In this document: positions 2,461 to 63,783 of the stretch, piece after piece
Position numbering within the stretch: position 1 is the stretch's first letter
Layout: each line of letters starts with the position of its first letter
Made by a program: the position numbers and the translations under genes
NCBI GenBank assembly: GCA_031283185.1
Contig: JAITCH010000010.1
Span: forward strand, 63,237-127,236
Direction of reading: 5' to 3'
Length of the DNA stretch: 64,000 bases
From: Rickettsiales bacterium
GTDB taxonomy: Bacteria; Pseudomonadota; Alphaproteobacteria; Rs-D84
Notes under the pieces: generated by a model
The model's input: the letters and a program-made list of their open reading frames with translations, nothing else
Told to the model about the DNA's origin: nothing
The model's database searches: none

Positions 2461-2868
2461 ATGGAACAATTTTTACAAGGACAATTATTTGCGGCAATTA
2501 TAATTTTAATACTAACAACAATTCTGACATTTGTTTCTAGCTATTTTTTAGAACGACAGCGCGCTAAAAAAGAAATTCAGCAAAAACTATTAATCAAACG
2601 ACTAGAAACATATGAAACACTTATGGAACTGATAAAGAATTGGCGGAATTTGATTCGCAATAAAAAAGAAAATAATGATGAAATTATGAGAATAAAACAA
2701 ATTGCTATTGATATTGAATCAAAATGTCTTCTATATGCATCTCACGAAGTGTGTCAGGAATACTCTAGGTTGGTTAATTGTGCCATGGATCAAAAAATAT
2801 TTGAATCCCCTGACAAACTTACACAAATAATACGAAAAGAGATTGGCAACGACAATCTTCCAAGTTAA
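2461..2868 (+). CDS. hypothetical protein with an N-terminal TM helix and a coiled-coil-like region
   Basis: The ORF has an RBS-like GGGTGATAAA upstream and a hydrophobic N-terminus (AAIIILILTTILTFV). No domain is recognised. Confidence 0.4.
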   Translation: MEQFLQGQLFAAIIILILTTILTFVSSYFLERQRAKKEIQQKLLIKRLETYETLMELIKNWRNLIRNKKENNDEIMRIKQIAIDIESKCLLYASHEVCQEYSRLVNCAMDQKIFESPDKLTQIIRKEIGNDNLPS

Positions 2869-2897: not shown

Positions 2898-2970
2898 GCA
2901 GGTGGGGGTTTCCTGCCCCACACTCATCTCCCCTTGTCATTCCCGCGAAGGCGGGAATCTCAAATTGTTA
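2898..2970. repeat. composite repeat family B copy (degenerate G-rich hairpin + GTCATTCCCGCGAAGGCGGGAATCTCAAATTGTTA), overlapping the 3' end of the GIY-YIG gene
   Basis: Sequence match to 29117-29194 and 55347-55453. Confidence 0.75.
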
Positions 2971-3278
2971 ATTTCCGCTGTTATTCCGGGGCATATATCT
3001 TCGGACAAATCATTCCATTCGGGATTGCTTTCTATTACCAATCGCTGTTTCCAACTTTTATTCCATTTCTTCAACTGCTTTTCCCGCACAACGGCGTGTT
3101 CCATATCTCCTTGAACTTCATACCAAACCAACTTATCCAGGTTGTATCTGTCGGAATGGCTATCCTTGAAAAACCCCGTCTTGTGTTGGTAAACGCGATT
3201 AACCAGGTCGGAGGTTGATCCGATATAGGTTCTGCCCATCCAACAATTAGTCATAATATATACGCAAGGCTGTTTCAT
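2937..3278 (-). CDS. GIY-YIG nuclease family protein (YhbQ/UPF0213-like)
   Basis: Starts VYIMTN...GRTYIGSTSDLVNRVYQHK...KLVWYE, which fits the GIY-YIG core. The last ~10 codons (NNLRFPPSRE) are encoded by the repeat at 2936-2970. Confidence 0.7.
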   Translation of the reverse strand: MKQPCVYIMTNCWMGRTYIGSTSDLVNRVYQHKTGFFKDSHSDRYNLDKLVWYEVQGDMEHAVVREKQLKKWNKSWKQRLVIESNPEWNDLSEDICPGITAEINNLRFPPSRE

Positions 3279-3325
3279 AGGACAAGGCTATCAAATTTTA
3301 TAAGTCCGCATCAAAGGATTTTTTA

Positions 3326-3406
3326 CAATTTGAGATTCCCGCCTTCGCGGGAATGACGACACTTCGTGTCGTTTCTAGCGGGTGGGGGTCGGGAGATCCC
3401 CACCCG
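3326..3406. repeat. composite repeat family B copy in inverted orientation (CAATTTGAGATTCCCGCCTTCGCGGGAATGAC ... GCGGGTGGGGGTCGGGAGATCCCCACCCGC)
   Basis: Reverse complement of the family B consensus. Together with 2898-2970 it brackets the GIY-YIG gene. Confidence 0.75.
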
Positions 3407-3418
3407 CCAAATGGAAAT

Positions 3419-4087
3419 TTATTTTATTTTCTGCTGCCCGACCATTGCCATTAGATTGCGTCTGTCGTCATTATGTAATTCGGGTAAATCCGCACAGGTA
3501 TCGCGGATCAAAGTTTCGAAATATAATCTGTAAGTATCCGAATGTAATTTTTTAATTTTGTTCTTATTGAAATTCAATTCTCCGTTCCGCCGCCGCCGCG
3601 GATAATTTTCCAAATCTTCAATATCTTCCTGTGTTGATTCAATCTGTTCGTCTAGGCAGGCGTTGTGCATACGAATTTCGTAATCGTATGCATTCTTTGC
3701 GACTATTCCATCTGCGCCGACACGGACGATTTCATAGCAGACATCGCGTAAAATTACCGGCTTGATCTTAATTTGGATGCCGATGATCCCGGCTTTGCCC
3801 ATTTTAAGGATTGCATTTTCGAATTTTATATCTTCATCCATTATGTGGGATAGACATTTGGCGTCCTTTGTCCCGTTGGCGCAAAGCCCAAGGGCATTTT
3901 GGAAGATGTCGTTGTTTGATGGATAGTTTAGAAAGATATGTTGTGTTTCCGGGTCAAGTGATTTTAATCCGGCGCGTTCGTCAACGACGCTTTTTGACAT
4001 AGAGTAAATTTCTTGGATAATTTTTACAATTCGGACGGCTTTTAATTGGGTTCGGTTTTCCCAATAGTTTTTTGGCGGTTTGTTCAT
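3419..4087 (-). CDS. hypothetical protein (222 aa)
   Basis: Long ORF divergent from the small paralog pair. No domain is recognised. Confidence 0.45.
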   Translation of the reverse strand: MNKPPKNYWENRTQLKAVRIVKIIQEIYSMSKSVVDERAGLKSLDPETQHIFLNYPSNNDIFQNALGLCANGTKDAKCLSHIMDEDIKFENAILKMGKAGIIGIQIKIKPVILRDVCYEIVRVGADGIVAKNAYDYEIRMHNACLDEQIESTQEDIEDLENYPRRRRNGELNFNKNKIKKLHSDTYRLYFETLIRDTCADLPELHNDDRRNLMAMVGQQKIK

Positions 4088-4231: not shown

Positions 4232-4444
4232 ATGGCACTTTTTGAACTTAATGGGTATTTGGTTGGGAATGACCAATACGGACACTTGAATGTAATAAGA
4301 AAACTTGAAGATGGCGAAAAGGAATGGTTGGGCAAAATGTGCCCGCCGCCACTGCCACAAGAGAATGTCGGCGCGGTATCGAAATTGCTGAATTTTTTAA
4401 GAAAGACTATAGCGGATGCTTCCCGTCAAAGGGCTGTGGCATAA
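4232..4444 (+). CDS. small hypothetical protein (70 aa), first of a tandem paralog pair
   Basis: The ORF starts MALFELNGYLV... and contains CPPP. A -10-like TACAAT lies upstream. Confidence 0.5.
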   Translation: MALFELNGYLVGNDQYGHLNVIRKLEDGEKEWLGKMCPPPLPQENVGAVSKLLNFLRKTIADASRQRAVA

Positions 4445-4926: not shown

Positions 4927-4965
4927 GCCGGAAGGGGTCTCAGAATCCCTTCCGGCATATTTTAT
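4927..4965 (+). terminator. intrinsic terminator-like hairpin GCCGGAAGGGGTCTCAGAATCCCTTCCGGC followed by ATATTTTA
   Basis: A 9-bp GC-rich stem followed by a T-rich tract, read directly from the sequence. Confidence 0.5.
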
Positions 4966-5036: not shown

Positions 5037-5122
5037 GGGGGTGTTGACCCGGACATAAGGTTTTCTGTGGATTTTTATCCTTTGACAAATAATAAAAGTG
5101 GGTGGAAAAGTTATAAAAAGTT

Positions 5123-5249
5123 CTCCTCCATTGGAGGAGTCCCCCACGAAGTGGGGGGAGGTGGTTTAGCCACATTAAGGTAAGTAGTGCGGGGATATTT
5201 GGTTAAACCACCCCGCGCCTACGGCGCACCCCTCCACCGGAGGGGAATT
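5123..5249. repeat. composite structured repeat copy A: hairpin, hairpin, inverted-repeat core GGTGGTTTAGCCAC...GTGGTTAAACCACC, hairpin, hairpin
   Basis: CTCCTCCATTGGAGGAG, TCCCCCACGAAGTGGGGGGA, the core, CGCGCCTACGGCGCA and CCCCTCCACCGGAGGGG. The architecture is the same as the copy at 35317-35454. Confidence 0.8.
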
Positions 5250-10461: not shown

Positions 10462-10504
10462 ATTCCCCTCCAAGGTGGAGGGGTGCCCGAAGGGCGGGGT
10501 GGTT
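10462..10504. repeat. terminal half-copy of the composite repeat (AATTCCCCTCCAAGGTGGAGGGGTG + GC hairpin + GGGGTGGTT)
   Basis: Matches the ends of the copies at 5123-5249 and 35317-35454. Confidence 0.75.
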
Positions 10505-26389: not shown

Positions 26390-26450
26390 TCCTTGTCCCC
26401 CTTTGTCGCGCCGTAGCAAAGCGAAGGCGGATAATGGGTGGGTAAAATAA

Positions 26451-29116: not shown

Positions 29117-29194
29117 GCGGGGCGGGGTCTCCTGACCCCGCCCCGCAATCGTCATCCCCGCGAAGGCGCGGATCTCAAATTGTATAATGCAAAT
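29117..29194. repeat. composite repeat, family B: G-rich hairpin GCGGGGCGGGGTCTCCTGACCCCGCCCCGC + GTCATCCCCGCGAAGGCGCGGATCTCAAATTGTATAATGCAAAT
   Basis: Same architecture as the copies at 2898-2970, 3326-3406 (inverted) and 55347-55453. Confidence 0.8.
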
Positions 29195-29257
29195 AAAATT
29201 CCACGCCACCATTGACGGGTGTGATAGGGTAGGGGTAATTTCCCATTAAAAAACCTG

Positions 29258-30679: not shown

Positions 30680-32119
30680 ATGAAAAAATACATAACCACG
30701 CCGATTTACTATATGAATGCCGCGCCCCATATTGGCAGCGCATATACCACCGCAATGTGCGATATTTTGCGCCGCGCTTATATCCGCCAAGGGCACGAGG
30801 TTTTCTTTACCAGCGGCAGTGATGAGCACGGCCAGAAAATGCAAGAGGCTGCGGAACGCGCCGGTATGTCATTTACGGAATTTTTGGATAAACAAAGCGC
30901 GCGGTTTAGGGAACTTACGATTGCGCTGAATGCCGCGCCGGATTTCTTTATTCGCACCAGTATGGATCAGCATAAAAAGATTGTCAGCGAATGGCTGGCG
31001 GACGCGCATCAAAAGGGCATTTTGGTAAAGAAAAAGTATAAGGGGCTTTATTGTGTCGGCTGCGAGCAGTTCAAGAAAGAATCAGATTTGATAGAGGGCG
31101 GCCTGTGCCCAGACCACCGCAAAGCACCGGTTGAAATGGAAGAAGAAAATTACTTTTTACCATTAGAGCCGCACCGCGAATGGTTGCGGGAATACATTGC
31201 GAAAAATCCCGAATGGATTCAGCCGGAAAGTTATCGCGCTGAAATTCTTAATATGTTATCAGAGCCGTTGGAGGATTTGTCCATTTCGCGGCCCCGGTCG
31301 CGGGTTGCACTGGGGATTGAATTTCCATTTGACGGGGATCATATAACTTATGTTTGGTATGACGCGCTGATTAATTATGTGTCTTCATTGCGTATAAACA
31401 AGTTTGATGAATTTTGGGCGGGCGCGATTCATGTAATTGGCAAGGACATATTAAAACCGCATTGTATTTTCTGGCCGATAATGTTGCGCGTTATGGGTAT
31501 GCCCCCGGCGCACCGCACATTTATACACGGATTTTGGACGGGCGAGGGCGGAATAAAAATGTCAAAGTCGCTGGGGAATGTAATTGATCCGTTTGAAGTT
31601 ATTGATGAAATCGGCGCGGACGCGTTAAGGTTTTACTTCGCACAGAACGCGGCGATTGCAAGGGATTCGACTATATCGCGGGAGTTGCTGAGAAAGGGCT
31701 ATGAAACCTTGGCGAACAATTTCGGCAATTTGTATCTGCGAACTTTTAAGATGATTGAGAAATATAATGTAGAATTCCCCTCCAAGGCTTGTCGCGCCGA
31801 AACGAAGTGTAGGCGGATGGAGGGGTCGGCGAAGCCGGGGGTGGTTGAGAATCTATCCGACATCCAAACCCTTGCGAATGATATTTTACGGCGCAGTTCG
31901 GAGTTAAATTTGTATATAGATCAGACGCAGCCGTGGGCATTGGCAAAGGACGAGGCGAAGAGGGATGAGTTGGTGCAGGTGCTGCAAACATTGGCGAATG
32001 GGGTTTTGGAATTGGCAGATGCGGTTGCGCCGATTATGCCGGATACTTCGGATAAAATTATTCAGTCATTCAAAACCAAAGAGTCCGTAGTCCTGTTTCC
32101 AAAGTTGGAAGATAAATAA
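30680..32119 (+). CDS. metG: methionyl-tRNA synthetase (short form)
   Basis: HIGH motif PHIGSAYT, zinc knuckles CVGC...CPDH, and KMSKS. Confidence 0.9.
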   Translation: MKKYITTPIYYMNAAPHIGSAYTTAMCDILRRAYIRQGHEVFFTSGSDEHGQKMQEAAERAGMSFTEFLDKQSARFRELTIALNAAPDFFIRTSMDQHKKIVSEWLADAHQKGILVKKKYKGLYCVGCEQFKKESDLIEGGLCPDHRKAPVEMEEENYFLPLEPHREWLREYIAKNPEWIQPESYRAEILNMLSEPLEDLSISRPRSRVALGIEFPFDGDHITYVWYDALINYVSSLRINKFDEFWAGAIHVIGKDILKPHCIFWPIMLRVMGMPPAHRTFIHGFWTGEGGIKMSKSLGNVIDPFEVIDEIGADALRFYFAQNAAIARDSTISRELLRKGYETLANNFGNLYLRTFKMIEKYNVEFPSKACRAETKCRRMEGSAKPGVVENLSDIQTLANDILRRSSELNLYIDQTQPWALAKDEAKRDELVQVLQTLANGVLELADAVAPIMPDTSDKIIQSFKTKESVVLFPKLEDK

Positions 32120-32123
32120 AATT

Positions 32124-32402
32124 CTAATGATGCATCGAATGGCAATTATGACAAACCGATACCAACCAGTCGATGGGTTCTCTGCCGATGTTCCTTGCAT
32201 ATTTTAAGTGATGAACTTGTGTCGCGCGAGCACCACAATATACGCAACGCCAATTATCTCGCTTGAACACCAAATAACGCTTTCGTTGCCAAGCATCTGA
32301 TTTAAGGTAGTCGTTCCGATAATAATCTCTCCGCCATTTCCGCTTCAAATTATTAAAAAACACAAACAAGATTATTAAAACTATTGAAAACAAAATTTGC
32401 AT
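32124..32402 (-). CDS. membrane-anchored HNH endonuclease-like protein (92 aa)
   Basis: An N-terminal TM helix followed by CVYCG...HHL...CHNCH. Confidence 0.65.
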   Translation of the reverse strand: MQILFSIVLIILFVFFNNLKRKWRRDYYRNDYLKSDAWQRKRYLVFKRDNWRCVYCGARATQVHHLKYARNIGREPIDWLVSVCHNCHSMHH

Positions 32403-35316: not shown

Positions 35317-35454
35317 GTTCCCCTTCATTGAAGGGGTGTCGCCGCAGGCGACGGGGTAGTTTAGCCACATTTTGGCAAGCAGTGCGGTTATATGTGGTTA
35401 AACCACCCCGGCACTTCGTGCCACCCCTCCAACGGAGGGGAATTTTATTTTTAT
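35317..35454. repeat. composite structured repeat copy B (same architecture as 5123-5249, with compensatory stem changes)
   Basis: CCCCTTCATTGAAGGGG, GTCGCCGCAGGCGAC, the core GGGTAGTTTAGCCAC...GTGGTTAAACCACC, GGCACTTCGTGCC and CCCCTCCAACGGAGGGG. Confidence 0.8.
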
Positions 35455-39572: not shown

Positions 39573-39583
39573 TAAAATAAAAT

Positions 39584-39615
39584 GTCATCCCGGGGCTTGA
39601 CCCCGGGATCTTGCC
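39584..39615. repeat. REP/RPE-like element GTCATCCCGGGGCTTGACCCCGGGATCTTGCC, 12 nt after the stop codon
   Basis: Member of the family described at 26451-26482. Confidence 0.8.
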
Positions 39616-40519: not shown

Positions 40520-40528
40520 TAAACAAAT

Positions 40529-40560
40529 GTCATCCCGGGGCTTGACCCCGGGATCTTGCC
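40529..40560. repeat. REP/RPE-like element, 10 nt after the rpsD stop
   Basis: Identical to the copy at 39584-39615. Confidence 0.8.
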
Positions 40561-43421: not shown

Positions 43422-43471
43422 AATTCCCCTCCAAGGTGGAGGGGTGGTGGCGTAGCCGCCGGGGTGGTTGG
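43422..43471. repeat. terminal half-copy of the composite repeat
   Basis: AATTCCCCTCCAAGGTGGAGGGGTG-GTGGCGTAGCCGCC-GGGGTGGTTGG. Confidence 0.75.
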
Positions 43472-44322: not shown

Positions 44323-44562
44323 CTAAAAATGTTTTTTAGAAAATAGCCTGCCATTTCCAGTTTTCAAATATGCCTCAAATTTTTCTGCCTTGTCTCTATT
44401 TTCAAATGCAAAATAGTTTTTAATTTTCCAAGGCTTGAATTTGTTTGTATGTATTGAGCATCCTTTGTTATGTTCATTAAGTCGTTTTTTCAGGTCGTCA
44501 GTTTGTCCCACATAAAATCTGTCTGGATTGCTTATGCTTTGTAAGATATATACATAAAACAT
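44323..44562 (-). CDS. GIY-YIG nuclease family protein (80 aa)
   Basis: MFYVYILQS...RFYVGQTDDLKKRLNEHN. Confidence 0.7.
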   Translation of the reverse strand: MFYVYILQSISNPDRFYVGQTDDLKKRLNEHNKGCSIHTNKFKPWKIKNYFAFENRDKAEKFEAYLKTGNGRLFSKKHF

Positions 44563-44673
44563 ATTTAATCCCTAATTGCCCGCTTTCGTCCTTCGGACGA
44601 TAGCGCGGCATCCGCTTCTCTAACACTCCGCCGCGATTGTGCCCAATCGCGCCGTAGCGTAAGCGAAGGCGGA

Positions 44674-44747
44674 TGGTTGGGGCAACTGGATTCGAACCAA
44701 TATAGTCAGAATCAGAATCTGAAGTCCTACCATTAGACGATGCCCCA
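44674..44747 (-). tRNA. tRNA-Gln (anticodon CTG), CCA encoded
   Basis: The reverse complement folds as tRNA. It has a U1:A72 pair like E. coli tRNA-Gln, anticodon loop TTCTGAT and T-loop TTCGAAT. Confidence 0.85.
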
Positions 44748-47402: not shown

Positions 47403-47490
47403 CGGAAATCGGTTTGGGTGTGCGGGGGCTTTTGTGCCCCCGCCCTTTTTTTATTTGACATTCAATTGATTCCATTACAAGGTATGGCGC

Positions 47491-47544
47491 AAATTCTCCT
47501 CCTGTGGAGGAGTCCGGGCGAAGCCCGGGAGGTGGGTCTACCAT
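47491..47544. repeat. 5'-half copy of the composite repeat (subfamily with GGTGGGTCTACC core), directly upstream of the DUF559 gene
   Basis: AAATTCTCCTCCTGTGGAGGAGTCCGGGCGAAGCCCGGGAGGTGGGTCTACCAT, identical over 56 bp to 48002-48057. Confidence 0.8.
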
Positions 47545-47564
47545 TAATCCTTGGGCAACAAACA

Positions 47565-47978
47565 ATGTCAATAGTTATTCAATACAATCCAAATCTTCGC
47601 AACAATGCAAAAGCATTACGCAAGGCGGGTATATTATCCGAAATCCTTCTATGGGATCAGATAAAGCGAGGTCAAATAAATGGTCTTGATTTTGACCGAC
47701 AACGAATCATGGGAAATTATATAGTGGATTTCTGCTGCCCAGATACAGGTGTAGTTATAGAGATTGACGGACATTCGCATGACTTTAAGGAACTGCACGA
47801 TACCAAGCGTGAGGAATATCTAAAAAGCCTGGGTCTTGAAACTATACATATCGCGGATATTGATGTTAAGCAAAGTTTAGATGGTGTTGTTGGAATGTTA
47901 AAGGCGCATCCATTTTTGCAAAATCCAATTAAAGATAGAAAATGTGTTTTTATACATAATTCTCCTCTTGTGAATTAG
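47565..47978 (+). CDS. DUF559-family endonuclease-like protein (Vsr/restriction-endonuclease-like fold)
   Basis: ...GNYIVDFCCPDTGVVIEIDGHSHD...EYLKSLGLETIH, the typical DUF559 pattern. Confidence 0.65.
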   Translation: MSIVIQYNPNLRNNAKALRKAGILSEILLWDQIKRGQINGLDFDRQRIMGNYIVDFCCPDTGVVIEIDGHSHDFKELHDTKREEYLKSLGLETIHIADIDVKQSLDGVVGMLKAHPFLQNPIKDRKCVFIHNSPLVN

Positions 47979-48001: not shown

Positions 48002-48128
48002 AAATTCTCCTCCTGTGGAGGAGTCCGGGCGAAGCCCGGGAGGTGGGTCTACCATATCTATGAAACGCAAGCCTAACCCGGAGACCCACCCCGTCCGCTT
48101 CGCGTCCACCCCTCCACCGGAGGGGAAT
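48002..48128. repeat. full composite repeat copy (GGTGGGTCT...AGACCCACC core subfamily), immediately downstream of the DUF559 gene
   Basis: Its 5' half is identical to 47491-47544. The 3' half ends CCCCTCCACCGGAGGGGAATT, as in the other copies. Confidence 0.8.
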
Positions 48129-48247
48129 TGGGCCCCGGAACGAGTTGGATTTCAAGTGGCAACGCAGAAATCTTAAGAGTTCCAGGCGAACATCCCTCAA
48201 CATCCACCCGCTCCATAACCCCCTCGCGCGCCACAATAACTTTCCGC

Positions 48248-55346: not shown

Positions 55347-55453
55347 GGCGGGTGGGGGTCTCCCGACCCCCACCCGAACATTTTACAAAAATTGCTTTTG
55401 CAATTTTTGTCATTCCCGCGAAGGCGGGAATCTCAGATTGTAAAATGCAAAAT
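55347..55453. repeat. composite repeat family B copy: GGGTGGGGGTCTCCCGACCCCCACCC hairpin, a 10-bp-arm palindrome spacer, and GTCATTCCCGCGAAGGCGGGAATCTCAGATTGTAAAATGCAAAAT
   Basis: Matches 2898-2970, 3326-3406 and 29117-29194. The repeat supplies the ATG/5' region of the downstream OMP gene. Confidence 0.8.
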
Positions 55454-56167
55454 AAAAAGAAACAAATGAAAAAACTATTAACAATTTTCACTATCGCCAC
55501 ATTATCCACTCTGTCGGCACACGCAGAACGCGCATTTACTACCGACCCATTTGATCCATTGTGGCTGGGGCTGAAAGGTGTGGTGCTGGCGGAAACTGGC
55601 GCGGATATTTATAAATCAACGATCAGCGTGCCTGTGCGCGCCCAGTGGTCTGTGGTGGATGATTTTGCAATTGAAGTAGATGTGAATGGCCAGGCGGACT
55701 TCAACAATCCGAATAGCGGCGTGTCGAATCTTGGCCTTAACGCATATTATAGAATTTCCGAAGGCAAAATGATATTTGATATGGTTGGCGGATTCCGGCT
55801 TGGACGGGAAAATAGTCGTGTTGCGATGTATCGGGACGACATATATACTTTTGGTATGCGTATAGGAACTGTTCGGAACAAGATAACGCTTTCTATGGAT
55901 GTTCTAACGAATTGGGCGTTTAACGGGAATTATAGTTATGCTCAGTTAAACTTGGTTCCGAATGTGTATATTCGCCTAGACGAAGATTGGAAATTAGGCG
56001 CTTATGCGGATGTCAAAAAGGACACATATAATACTGGGCAGGAAGAGGTTCGCATAGGTGTTTTGGCGGTGAAACAATATGGCGCGACAAGTTATATGGG
56101 CGGCGCGGGATATGCTGTGAACGAGGCGAGTATTTACCTCCAAGCCCGCCTAGCCGTCCTGTTTTAA
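55442..56167 (+). CDS. outer-membrane beta-barrel protein (start 55442 or 55463)
   Basis: Signal peptide MKKLLTIFTIATLSTLSAHA, and a C-terminal ...LAVLF. Confidence 0.5.
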   Translation, partial: KMQNKKKQMKKLLTIFTIATLSTLSAHAERAFTTDPFDPLWLGLKGVVLAETGADIYKSTISVPVRAQWSVVDDFAIEVDVNGQADFNNPNSGVSNLGLNAYYRISEGKMIFDMVGGFRLGRENSRVAMYRDDIYTFGMRIGTVRNKITLSMDVLTNWAFNGNYSYAQLNLVPNVYIRLDEDWKLGAYADVKKDTYNTGQEEVRIGVLAVKQYGATSYMGGAGYAVNEASIYLQARLAVLF

Positions 56168-56841: not shown

Positions 56842-58392
56842 TTACGCTCCGAACTTACCCCTATTAATCGATCTGTATGTCAATGCCTCGGCAATATCTT
56901 CCATAATGATATTTTCTGCGCCACGCAAATCTGCAATCGTCCGTGCGATTCGTAATACGCGATTGTATCCGCGCGCTGACAGCGACATTTTTTCCGCCGC
57001 TAAATTTATAAAGTCGCGCAACTCTTGCGTCAATGCGGTGGCGGTTTCCAACTCGCGCCCGTCCAGCCGGGCATTCAGAATTTCGCGCCCGAAAAGTTTC
57101 ACGCTTCGCGCGATCTGCCGTTCCCGCGCGGCGCAGGTGCGTGCCCGAATCGCTGCGGATGTTTCCTCGGGCGCGCTTTCTGTCCGCCCCAGTTCCCAAG
57201 GGTTCACCGAATCAACTTCAACATGCAAATCGATTCGATCCATTAGTGGTCCTGAAATTTTATTTTGATACGCCTCGGCACAGCGCGGTGCCTTGGAGCA
57301 CGATAATTTTGCATTCCCCAGGTGTCCGCACGGGCAGGGATTCATTGCCGCAATAAGTTGAAATTGCGCGGGGTATGTTGCATTGCGTTTCGCGCGCGAA
57401 ATGGTAATGCCGCCGGTTTCCATTGGCTGCCGTAAAATCTCTAATGCGCCGCGCTGAAATTCGGGCAGTTCGTCCAAAAATAACACGCCATTGTGCGCCA
57501 AAGAAATCTCGCCGGGCAGCGCGTTGGAACCGCCGCCGGACAGCGCGATTTGACTTGCGGTGTGGTGGACGGCGCGGAACGGACGGGCATTCATCAACCC
57601 GCCGCCTTTGAGGAGCCCCGCGACAGAATAGATGACCGAAGTATCTAAAACCTCGCGTTGCGTCATCGGCGGCAATATAGAGCCGAGGCGCGATGCGAGC
57701 ATTGATTTACCCGCGCCCGGAGGGCCGACCATTAACATTGCGTGCCCGCCTGCCGCGGCGATTTCCAATGCCCGTTTTGCTGCCGCTTGCCCCTTTACTT
57801 CGGACATATCTGCCGAATCAGTTCCCCTCCGGTGGAGGGGTGCCGCCAAAGGCGGCGGGGTGGTCTCGGGCGCAGGCATTGGTTCATTATGTCTAAACCA
57901 ATTCACCAAATCCAAAACATTTCCGGCGGCCAGGATATTTTTATTTCCCGCCCACTTGGCCTCGTCCATATTGTCAACGGGGCAAATGATGCCCAACCCT
58001 TGGTCGTTTGCCCAAATACTGGCGGGCAGGACGCCATTTGCCCGCAGGATTGTGCCGTCAAGGCCGACTTCGCCCATAATGACATATTTTGCCAGTTCTT
58101 CTTCTGGCAATACGCCCATCGCGGCGAGAACGGCGCATAGAATCGGCAGGTCAAAGTGCGCACCGGTCTTGGTCAGGTCGGCGGGCGCAAGGTTCACTAC
58201 GACTTTCTTTGCGGGTATGGACAGGTTCATTGCCTTGAAGGCGGATTCAATGCGGGTGGATGCTTCTTTGACGGCGCGGTCGGCGAGCCCAACGATGAAG
58301 AATTTAACCATTCCGTGGGATATTTGCGCCTGTGCTTCGACGCGGGTTATTTCCAGTCCATTAAAAACGATAGTATTTATATTCGCCGTCAT
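56842..58392 (-). CDS. comM: YifB/ComM-family Mg-chelatase-like AAA+ ATPase, carrying an in-frame half-repeat insertion in the inter-domain linker
   Basis: Lon-like N-terminal domain, Walker A GPPGAGKS, and a C-terminal ChlI-like domain. The repeat at 57821-57864 encodes PETTPPPLAAPLHRRG. Confidence 0.9.
   Translation of the reverse strand: MTANINTIVFNGLEITRVEAQAQISHGMVKFFIVGLADRAVKEASTRIESAFKAMNLSIPAKKVVVNLAPADLTKTGAHFDLPILCAVLAAMGVLPEEELAKYVIMGEVGLDGTILRANGVLPASIWANDQGLGIICPVDNMDEAKWAGNKNILAAGNVLDLVNWFRHNEPMPAPETTPPPLAAPLHRRGTDSADMSEVKGQAAAKRALEIAAAGGHAMLMVGPPGAGKSMLASRLGSILPPMTQREVLDTSVIYSVAGLLKGGGLMNARPFRAVHHTASQIALSGGGSNALPGEISLAHNGVLFLDELPEFQRGALEILRQPMETGGITISRAKRNATYPAQFQLIAAMNPCPCGHLGNAKLSCSKAPRCAEAYQNKISGPLMDRIDLHVEVDSVNPWELGRTESAPEETSAAIRARTCAARERQIARSVKLFGREILNARLDGRELETATALTQELRDFINLAAEKMSLSARGYNRVLRIARTIADLRGAENIIMEDIAEALTYRSINRGKFGA
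57821..57864. repeat. terminal half-copy of the composite repeat, inserted in-frame within comM
   Basis: GTTCCCCTCCGGTGGAGGGGTG-CCGCCAAAGGCGGC-GGGGTGGTCT on the plus strand. It is read through on the minus strand. Confidence 0.8.
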
Positions 58393-60746: not shown

Positions 60747-60747
60747 T

Positions 60748-60779
60748 GTCATTCCGGGGCTTGACCCCGGAATCTTGCC
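60748..60779. repeat. REP/RPE-like element, 2 nt after the stop codon
   Basis: GTCATTCCGGGGCTTGACCCCGGAATCTTGCC. Confidence 0.8.
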
Positions 60780-61805: not shown

Positions 61806-61812
61806 TTAATAA

Positions 61813-61844
61813 GTCATCCCCCGGCTTGACCGGGGGATCTCGGC
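61813..61844. repeat. REP/RPE-like element (GTCATCCCCCGGCTTGACCGGGGGATCTCGGC) between rpsB and tsf
   Basis: A family member with compensatory stem changes. Confidence 0.8.
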
Positions 61845-62978: not shown

Positions 62979-63025
62979 AATTCCCCGCCAATGGTGGCGG
63001 GGTGGCACGAAGTGCCGGGGTGGTT
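62979..63025. repeat. terminal half-copy of the composite repeat
   Basis: AATTCCCCGCCAATGGTGGCGGGGTG-GCACGAAGTGCC-GGGGTGGTTAG. Confidence 0.75.
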
Positions 63026-63030
63026 AGAAA

Positions 63031-63783
63031 ATGCTTACCGAAAAAGAACATCGTATAAAGGGCTCTGGCGAGTTAAACGAAATGTTTAACGCGCTAAGCC
63101 GGACTGCGACTGGAATCCAGCGCGACTTTGGCGAAATTGAAAGCCTGCAAAGTTCTATTAAGGGCGCGGCGGATTTCGTGGCCAAGGCGATAGAACGGGT
63201 CGAGGCGATGATATTGTCGGACTTGCAGTTAATTCGTCCGCAGGCTGGTATTACGACCACGAACGAATTCCGCGAAGGCGATGGTGTGGACGAATTTGTG
63301 TTGGGATTTTCCGGCGCGGGAAATTTCGTGCGCGGGAATCCGCATTTTGCGATTTCTTTGGCACTTAAACACGAAGGCGAAACTGCGATTGGCTTGATTT
63401 ATTCGCCGATTGACGACAGATTGTATTTCGCGGAAAAGGGCAATGGCGCATTTATATTCGCTCCGTTTCATAGTCAACGGATGCGCGCTTCAACCCGCAC
63501 CGAACCTACTGACCTTACAATTTATAAGTCATTCCCCGGCTTGACCGGGGAATCTCGGCCGCTAATATCGCAAATCCCAACCTCCAACCTTCGCATTTCC
63601 GGCTGCCCTGCGCTTGACCTGGCATATGTTGCATCGGGCAAGGCGGACATTGCGATTTTGGCGAATGACGGCATTTCCGAAATCTGTGCTGGTCAGTTAT
63701 TGGTCGAAGAGGCGAATGGCTTTGTTGATTTCACCAACGGCGACATCCTTGCGGCATCTCTTTCCATAAAATCCTTTATATAA
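63031..63783 (+). CDS. inositol monophosphatase (SuhB/IMPase)-family protein with a degenerate metal-binding motif and an in-frame REP-like insertion
   Basis: C-terminal ALDLAYVASGKAD and central PHFAISLAL match the IMPase fold. However, the DPIDGT motif is replaced by GFSGAG, and the repeat at 63528-63560 encodes SFPGLTGESRP. Confidence 0.6.
   Translation: MLTEKEHRIKGSGELNEMFNALSRTATGIQRDFGEIESLQSSIKGAADFVAKAIERVEAMILSDLQLIRPQAGITTTNEFREGDGVDEFVLGFSGAGNFVRGNPHFAISLALKHEGETAIGLIYSPIDDRLYFAEKGNGAFIFAPFHSQRMRASTRTEPTDLTIYKSFPGLTGESRPLISQIPTSNLRISGCPALDLAYVASGKADIAILANDGISEICAGQLLVEEANGFVDFTNGDILAASLSIKSFI
63528..63560. repeat. REP/RPE-like element inserted in-frame within the IMPase-family gene
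   Basis: GTCATTCCCCGGCTTGACCGGGGAATCTCGGCC. Confidence 0.8.

Follow-up and report, generated by a model that had tools for sequence, protein, structure and literature searches.

The locus described here raises the question of why a small GIY-YIG nuclease gene should lie between two inverted copies of a hairpin repeat, one of which also encodes the end of the nuclease. It is located in a 64,000-nucleotide (nt) stretch of genomic DNA of an uncultured Rickettsiales bacterium (contig JAITCH010000010.1 of GenBank assembly GCA_031283185.1, positions 63,237 to 127,236 of the forward strand), which we call the window and whose coordinates are used throughout. The initial annotation of this DNA took the arrangement for the layout of a small mobile unit, or of a nuclease gene that had repeatedly acquired repeat copies at both ends. 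Judging from sequence comparison, we consider it very probable that this is an Ssn/SRM locus, with a gene for a single-stranded-DNA nuclease (Ssn), in which the 33-nt module flanking the gene (M2) is the cognate Ssn-related motif (SRM), an NTS-like and dRS3-like repeat of the CGTC-tagged REP type. Loci of this kind were described in 2025, and the window contains a further example, from an uncultured Rickettsiales bacterium.

SsnA of Neisseria meningitidis is a 94-amino acid (aa) GIY-YIG protein (CDD cd10448) that binds the NTS repeat (CGTCATTCCCGCGMAVGCGGGAATCYRG) exclusively in single-stranded DNA, on the strand given, and cuts a few nucleotides upstream of it (Chenal et al., Nat Commun 2025, PMC11893778). 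The enzyme is inactive on double-stranded DNA and on RNA, neither of which it binds in vitro; the GTC that precedes the palindrome is critical for cleavage and the C that follows it for binding, and mutation of Y6, Y17 and E64 abolished catalysis (PMC11893778). Cleavage that is both site-specific and specific for single-stranded DNA is known for the N. meningitidis, N. elongata, N. wadsworthii and Wolbachia enzymes, and the role of SsnA in Neisseria is the restriction of incoming transforming DNA (PMC11893778). In the same study, 71% of Ssn homologues had at least one SRM nearby and 42% had an SRM on both sides, and the NTS-ssnA-NTS arrangement was called insertion sequence (IS)-like, its mobility being raised as a hypothesis (PMC11893778). 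CGTC-tagged REPs, including dRS3 of Neisseria and RPE-6 of Rickettsia, had been catalogued by Di Nocera et al. (2013, PMC3733652), who found them mainly as head-to-head dimers and remarked on the lack of an enzyme dedicated to them.

The nuclease and the motif at its flanks

The assignment rests on the protein, on the repeat and on a bracketing arrangement that recurs across genomes (see below). GIY-YIG is the only Pfam domain of the window protein (E=3e-13, residues 4-77). In a BLASTP comparison it shares 50% identity across 94 aa (E=2e-32) with a 94-aa homologue from N. gonorrhoeae (L029:2998-3282), which has the same length as the reported N. meningitidis SsnA and is likewise surrounded by NTS repeats. 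This E value lies below the threshold of E < 1e-10 by which Chenal et al. 2025 (PMC11893778) define homology to SsnA, the comparison here being with the N. gonorrhoeae open reading frame (ORF) and not with NMV_0044 itself. Residues Y7, Y18 and E66 align with Y6, Y17 and E64 of N. meningitidis SsnA; in an alignment of 37 homologues, Y18 and E66 are invariant and Y7 is nearly so. Homologues are abundant and mostly 95-97 aa long, and the window protein has the small single-domain build of the family (about 94-100 aa, no extra DNA-binding domain), its surplus 17 aa being encoded by the repeat. The ORF is not the decayed pseudogene that the initial annotation had allowed for, as it is intact, aligns over the full length of the Neisseria homologue and retains all three catalytic residues. 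The gene call made by JGI (P0001) begins at Met14 and leaves out the GIY motif, so that Met1 at 3278 is the better start; looking up this call as an exact sequence gave no hit. A sequence search of solved structures returned no match for the protein; NCBIfam holds no model specific to it, and the NCBIfam model for group I intron endonucleases shows a weak similarity that falls far under its cut-off. A search of Rfam returned tRNAs only.

On both sides the gene is flanked by M2 (GTCATTCCCGCGAAGGCGGGAATCTCAAATTGT). Read in the sense of the gene, the locus consists of 5′-GTCAT-hairpin-ATC, 46 nt, the ATG, the gene, and a stop codon within a reverse copy of the repeat; the copy at 2936-2968 supplies this stop together with the final ~10 codons, as had been noticed at the outset. 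M2 occurs four times in the window, at 2936-2968 (+ strand, exact), 3325-3357 (− strand, exact), 29151-29183 (+ strand, 3 mismatches) and 55409-55441 (+ strand, 1 mismatch), with none expected from 100 dinucleotide shuffles. The pair around the gene has arms of 36 nt that are 97% complementary and 350 nt apart. The four copies and the inverted repeat (I4) thus agree in position and description with what the initial annotation had reported as repeat family B and its bracket.

Compared with the Neisseria NTS consensus, M2 matches at 26 of 28 positions, among them those of the GTC preceding and the C following the palindrome. The published SRM pattern, HGTCWYN(0-2)YYVSBRHN(0-5)WNVSBRGN(0-2)RNCYNB, is found in three of the four M2 copies once its last two positions are left off, the decayed copy at 29151 being the one that does not match, and this shortened pattern has 8 sites in the window vs 0.2 in shuffles. 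As single-stranded DNA, the hairpins of M2 and the G-rich hairpins beyond it form stable folds (z-scores between -3.8 and -9.1).

Several points weigh against this assignment. M2 fits the SRM pattern except at the final B, where it has an A, and its last two positions read TCTCA where the Neisseria consensus has TCYRG. The repeat-encoded 17-aa tail gives the protein a length that is atypical of the Ssn family and might affect its activity. Furthermore, the motifs around the N. gonorrhoeae gene (L029) are oriented oppositely to those of the window, with their heads towards the gene, from which we conclude that orientation is not fixed in the Ssn family.

By analogy with the characterised enzymes, the window Ssn would recognise the M2 hairpin in single-stranded DNA alone, and on no strand but the one with the order GTCAT-stem-loop-stem-ATC. 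The bound strand would then be hydrolysed 5′ of the (C)GTC tag, at a distance of a few nucleotides, with predicted cuts near 2931/2932 on the + strand and near 3361/3362 on the − strand, in both cases between M2 and the G-rich hairpin (H1) beyond it. That the window protein itself cuts M2 we infer from its homology with the characterised Neisseria and Wolbachia enzymes. In the cell, such an activity may serve to police or process single-stranded DNA that bears the repeat, or to spread the repeat.

The tail of M2, ATTGTA(T/A)AAT(GCAAA), resembles an extended −10 element in all copies (2936-2975, 3320-3357, 29151-29195 and 55409-55455). These −10-like tails face a downstream gene, be it ssn, the gene for tRNA-Ala or the gene that starts near 55467; the notion of an SRM that carries an outward-facing promoter is speculative.

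The initial annotation had joined H1 and M2 into one composite repeat, and this part of its description does not hold. H1 does lie 5-32 nt ahead of GTCAT in all four M2 copies, but the spacers (12, 20, 4 and 32 nt) are unrelated in sequence, and H1 also occurs without M2, at 4927, 18292 and 56792 (family D3). Because the spacers differ in both sequence and length, H1 and M2 are best described as two independent modules that stand side by side and not as a unit that was copied whole. The H1 family has a conserved loop (TCTCCNGA) and a conserved tail (GAACATTTTA), with stems that vary by compensatory changes, and is positioned just past stop codons: the H1 outside the upstream SRM, for example, sits 12 nt (3407-3418) past the stop of the co-oriented gene 3419..4087 (−). 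We also considered H1 as part of a terminal repeat of the cassette and rejected this, as relatives of the locus, among them the closest one (L081) and a Rickettsiaceae locus (L001), have no such hairpin beyond their SRMs and as the sequences between H1 and M2 show no relation to one another. A preference of SRM insertion for sites beside H1-type hairpins might account for the coupling of the two modules.

Flanking arms in other genomes and the question of mobility

The initial annotation proposed to examine whether other GIY-YIG genes have inverted repeats at their flanks. A 10-sequence alignment (A2) was used to collect 80 homologue loci, one genome per species, from Alpha-, Beta- and Gammaproteobacteria, Planctomycetota, Chloroflexi, Bdellovibrionales, Bacteroidota, Myxococcota and Vampirovibrio. 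For every gene, the preceding 220 nt were compared with the following 220 nt in reverse complement, an ungapped match score of at least 14 being counted as a pair of inverted arms, and controls were displaced by 600 nt. Such arms were present in 54 of the 75 usable loci (median score 25), as opposed to 3 of 145 controls (median score 8). The sequence shared by the arms is nearly always (C)GTCA(T/C)-stem-loop-stem-(G)ATCC, for example CGTCATTCCCGCGAAGGCGGGAATCCAG in many lineages and CGTCATGCTGAACTTGTTTCAGCATCC in Sphingomonadales. Strict SRMs have a density of 1.14 per kb within 250 nt of ssn vs 0.08 per kb elsewhere in the same loci. In the alignment, many N- and C-terminal extensions of the longer homologues read like translated hairpin repeats, which hints that the association with repeats is general.

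The window locus is typical of this collection. Its motifs point heads out, as in the majority of loci (upstream, 25 on the + strand vs 7; downstream, 29 on the − strand vs 12), and its cassette measures 422 nt from arm to arm where the median is 418 nt. The upstream arm is separated from the ATG by a median of 28 nt, and the downstream arm from the stop by a median of 8.5 nt. In 13 of the 54 loci, among them several Sphingomonadales in which a TGA is part of the stem (e.g. ...GGATGCTGAaacaagttcagcatgac), the downstream arm contains the stop codon. A repeat-encoded C-terminus thus recurs as a result of tight packing and is not special to the window. The closest homologue (P0002, L081) is 61% identical and lies in a different gene context, and its SRMs share the ATCT(C/T)AAATTGT tail of M2, without H1.

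These results bear on the possibility that the bracket is accidental, with H1 and M2 marking the 3′ ends of two convergent genes, 2461..2868 (+) and 3419..4087 (−), between which ssn happens to lie. Each flanking copy is indeed co-oriented with the adjacent gene and 30-70 nt past its stop, like the copy at 55348 and those of the D1 family described below, and with four copies in 64 kb we estimate a chance of ~7% that some pair would fall within 400 nt. Yet the same bracket recurs in unrelated bacteria at a rate far above that of the displaced controls, the closest homologue has SRMs with the same tail in other surroundings, and the association of the nuclease with the repeat is already published (PMC11893778). 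We regard coincidence as extremely improbable.

A different matter is whether SRM-ssn-SRM is, or formerly was, an autonomous mobile element with Ssn as its endonuclease, in which case solitary SRMs would be its non-autonomous derivatives, as REPINs are of RAYTs. The layout is like that of an insertion sequence, and in the majority orientation both predicted cut sites would fall immediately beyond the ends of the cassette. The locus encodes no member of a known transposase family, however, and inspection of positions 2935 and 3358 revealed no direct repeat or target-site duplication, which sets the locus apart from insertion sequences and miniature inverted-repeat transposable elements. GIY-YIG enzymes hydrolyse DNA, and we know of none that joins strands.

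The genomic distribution of the cassette is similarly divided. Across 81 loci there is no conserved neighbour gene or operon partner, the best-shared family being present in 7 of them, but in related genomes (L012/L038, L003/L005, L049/L061 and L067/L080) the cassette occupies the same site, which fits vertical inheritance. Two paralogues in one metagenome-assembled genome (L007 and L019) share similarity over the arm-to-arm unit alone (363 nt); with an identity of 81%, they are also old. In one of the Sphingomonadales-type loci (L047), the ~410-nt cassette (about 2937-3354) is inverted relative to the same flanks in two others (L024 and L075), with breakpoints inside the SRM arms, an event that ordinary recombination between inverted arms can explain. 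Moreover, ssn was found in 32 of 72,556 plasmid records, nearly all of them non-mobilisable megareplicons or chromosomes, and in 0 of 50,697 phage records. Scanning metagenomes with the adjacent 222-aa protein yielded no relative, and the nearest relatives of the isoleucyl-tRNA synthetase of the host are only 67% identical, so that there is no close strain in which an empty site could be sought. Our literature search found no paper after Chenal et al. 2025 on the mobility of the Ssn cassette. On balance, we think it doubtful that the cassette is or was a mobile element. The nuclease-repeat unit seen by the initial annotation is therefore real and systematic, while the mobile unit is not borne out, considering (i) the absence of a transposase, (ii) the absence of a target-site duplication, (iii) the rarity of ssn on plasmids, and (iv) its absence from phages.

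The window locus changes little in the published description of Ssn/SRM loci, but it leads to an independent confirmation that the bracket is systematic across phyla. The details added here, namely that the repeat often supplies the stop codon, that there is no conserved neighbour, that paralogues share sequence only from arm to arm, and that one cassette is inverted, bear on the question of mobility.

Other repeat families and nuclease genes in the window

The coordinates of the features are given in Table 1.

Table 1. Location of the nuclease genes and repeats discussed in the text
Feature	Coordinates	Strand	Description
ssn gene	2937..3278	−	342-nt ORF; 113-aa single-domain GIY-YIG protein assigned to the Ssn family; ~96-aa core and 17-aa tail running into the downstream repeat
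Upstream SRM (M2)	3325..3358	−	CGTCATTCCCGCGAAGGCGGGAATCTCA on the sense strand of the gene; ends 46 nt before the ATG; 8-bp stem, loop GAAG
Downstream SRM (M2)	2935..2968	+	Inverted relative to the upstream copy; holds the ssn stop and last ~10 codons
H1, G-rich hairpin	3378..3406		GCGGGTGGGGGTC-loop-GATCCCCACCCGC; outside the upstream SRM
Decayed H1	2898..2925		Outside the downstream SRM; 30 nt past the stop of gene 2461..2868 (+); 6 pairs left
Solitary H1 + M2	29117..29183	+	H1 at 29117-29145; upstream of tRNA-Ala; one mismatch in the M2 stem, decaying copy
Solitary H1 + M2	55348..55441	+	H1 at 55348-55376; between two co-oriented genes; M2 within a further stem, CATTTTACAA...TTGTAAAATG
D1, second SRM family	39583..39613	+	TGTCATCCCGGGGCTTGACCCCGGGATCTTG (also GTCATCCCGGGGCTTGACCCCGGGATCTTG); strict SRM pattern
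Further D1 copies	40528-40558, 60747-60777, 61812-61842, 63527-63557; degenerate ~26451	+	All on the same strand
DUF559 gene (Vsr-like PD-(D/E)xK)	47565..47978	+	Listed ORF 47418..47978, E=1e-24; likely true start 47565
Other family A copies	5121-5164, 5208-5247, 10463-10502, 35403-35442, 43424-43467, 57822-57863, 62981-63023		

Besides M2, the window contains a second SRM family, D1, with 5 strict matches to the SRM pattern vs 0.12 in shuffles. Four of these five copies lie 2-12 nt past the stop of a co-oriented gene, and within the window no ssn gene adjoins any D1 copy. The presence of D1 with no cognate ssn in the window predicts that a second ssn exists elsewhere in the genome, or that D1 is cross-recognised by the ssn product of 2937..3278.

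All but one of the 11 SRM-type copies lie on the + strand, and the GC skew is positive throughout the window. This strand bias could stem from exposure on the lagging-strand template, in the manner of IS200/IS605 and REPs, or from plain gene orientation; as a sign of lagging-strand-template targeting we rejected it, since it is confounded by the orientation of the genes and the sample is too small. In an independent assembly of the same organism, the only other contig from it (Logan contig SRR14710906_2168, our L082) breaks at 4240-4268, inside the SRM downstream of the 135-aa gene, and this end inside an SRM indicates that such repeats fragment short-read assemblies.

Most SRM-type copies in the window are found on the sense strand, 2-70 nt after the stop codons of co-oriented genes. 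This position is what one would expect of repeats that act on RNA or transcription, as terminators, stabilisers of mRNA 3′ ends or mobile promoters, with Ssn having an unrelated role or regulating itself through the repeats. H1 resembles a terminator stem that lacks a T-tract, the M2 tail could be read as an extended −10 element directed towards the downstream gene, and CGTC REPs have been argued to be transcribed (Di Nocera et al. 2013, PMC3733652). Nevertheless, SsnA binds neither RNA nor double-stranded DNA in vitro (PMC11893778), cross-phylum conservation extends to the unpaired GTC tag and to the C that follows the stem, which suits the needs of the protein and not those of a terminator, and a scan for promoters and terminators gave nothing above background at the locus. 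An action of the repeats at the RNA level is in our estimation improbable, and recognition of the SRM by Ssn in single-stranded DNA is the reading that we retain.

DUF559 is a large family of unknown function. The initial annotation had listed a DUF559 gene among the nucleases of the window, and a domain search bears this out (Table 1). The gene lies between identical 54-nt copies of the most abundant repeat of the window, family A, at 47491-47544 and 48002-48055, with a third, reversed copy at 48086-48130. Family A is a double hairpin, TTCCCCTCC-loop-GGAGGGG-T-[variable GC hairpin]-GGGGTGG, with 10 strict copies in the window vs 0 in 100 shuffles.

The pairing extends to other genomes. Of 80 metagenomic DUF559 genes, 68 had family A within ~250 nt, 44 of them on either side, whereas it was next to 0 of 80 ssn genes. 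Its density was 2.4 per kb near DUF559 vs 0.14 per kb elsewhere in the loci, and its orientation was mostly inverted with heads out (upstream, 59 on the + strand vs 18; downstream, 72 on the − strand vs 14). The inverted-repeat test was positive in 42 of 63 DUF559 loci and in 2 of 99 controls. Furthermore, DUF559 homologues from many phyla carry N-terminal NSPPLEGWQAQPDGVV (NSPPLEGW...) and C-terminal HPALTGTPPEEGN extensions, which correspond to family A translated in the forward and reverse direction. A literature search found no paper that links DUF559 with repeats.

DUF559 and family A seem to form another nuclease-repeat partnership, the third after RAYT/REP and Ssn/SRM, and are a more novel lead than the ssn locus. 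We tentatively suggest, at somewhat less than an even chance, that the Ssn cassette is one of at least two unrelated partnerships in this genome in which a small nuclease is paired with a hairpin repeat of its own, the second of which is seemingly undescribed. If DUF559 proteins recognise family A as Ssn and RAYT proteins recognise their repeats, stand-alone nucleases flanked by repeats would form a convergently evolved class, and such cassettes, including SRM-ssn-SRM, might be, or have been, self-mobilising single-stranded-DNA elements. The pairing would also provide a testable target for DUF559 and would suggest further nucleases with sequence and structure specificity, like those now under development from Ssn.

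The initial annotation had counted four small nuclease genes in 64 kb. The second GIY-YIG gene, at 44323..44562, is confirmed (E=3e-15); the candidate for the HNH gene, at 32124..32402 on the − strand, is borderline (E=3.7e-4, 21.0 bits vs a cut-off of 21.4). The four belong to unrelated families, and only Ssn and DUF559 have a flanking repeat of their own. The second GIY-YIG protein (79 aa) is of a different subfamily, with matches to T5orf172 and MUG113, and its gene has no SRM flanks. It lies 110 nt 3′ of the gene for tRNA-Gln(CUG) (44323-44747), across a GC-rich structured spacer, part of which (CGCGCCGTAGCGTAAGCGAAGGCGGAT) recurs near 26400 and 31785; the region may be a small element lodged at the 3′ end of the tRNA gene. 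A family A repeat with a nested insertion of another repeat (31770-31850) is found inside the ORF 30680..32119 (+), where it leaves the frame unbroken and recalls the in-frame palindromic elements of Rickettsia.

Comparison with known systems

GIY-YIG homing endonucleases, of the I-TevI type or encoded by free-standing phage genes, share the GIY-YIG catalytic domain with the window protein. In contrast to them, the window ssn has no DNA-binding extension, intron or phage context, and the target of Ssn is a hairpin in single-stranded DNA and not a long double-stranded homing site.

The RAYT/REPIN system is closer in its organisation, as it too consists of a small gene flanked by inverted hairpins that are recognised as single-stranded DNA, with further copies dispersed between genes. 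The gene is reported to be usually single in a genome and to be inherited vertically. RAYT proteins, however, are HUH/Y1 (IS200/IS605) transesterases, unrelated in fold and chemistry, whose repeats carry a GTAG tag, whereas the window encodes a GIY-YIG hydrolase next to repeats with a (C/T)GTC tag, which places the locus outside the RAYT/REPIN group.

The CGTC-1 class of REPs (PMC3733652) resembles M2 itself, (C/T)GTC-ATTCCCGC-GAAG-GCGGGAAT-CTC, in its CGTC or TGTC tag, an 8-bp stem that starts from AT, a 4-nt loop and a short tail, as well as in its location downstream of genes and its presence in Rickettsiales. The window copies differ in being singletons or a tail-to-tail pair around a gene, and in having the tail CTC in place of CCA.

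The closest system is Ssn/SRM (PMC11893778). The window locus departs from it in (i) its host, an uncultured Rickettsiales bacterium in which natural transformation is not established, (ii) the heads-out motifs, as opposed to the heads-in arrangement of N. gonorrhoeae L029, (iii) the motif tail, TCTCAAATTGT instead of CYRG, and (iv) the coupling of M2 to H1, the 17-aa extension of the ORF into the repeat and the coexisting D1 family. It agrees with the Ssn/SRM system in encoding a single-domain GIY-YIG protein of ~95 aa that has 50% identity to the N. gonorrhoeae homologue and the catalytic Y, Y and E, in a motif (CGTCATTCCCGCGAAGGCGGGAATC) that shows no difference in stem, loop or critical flanking bases, and in the presence of this motif on both sides of the gene and at dispersed sites (29151 and 55409).

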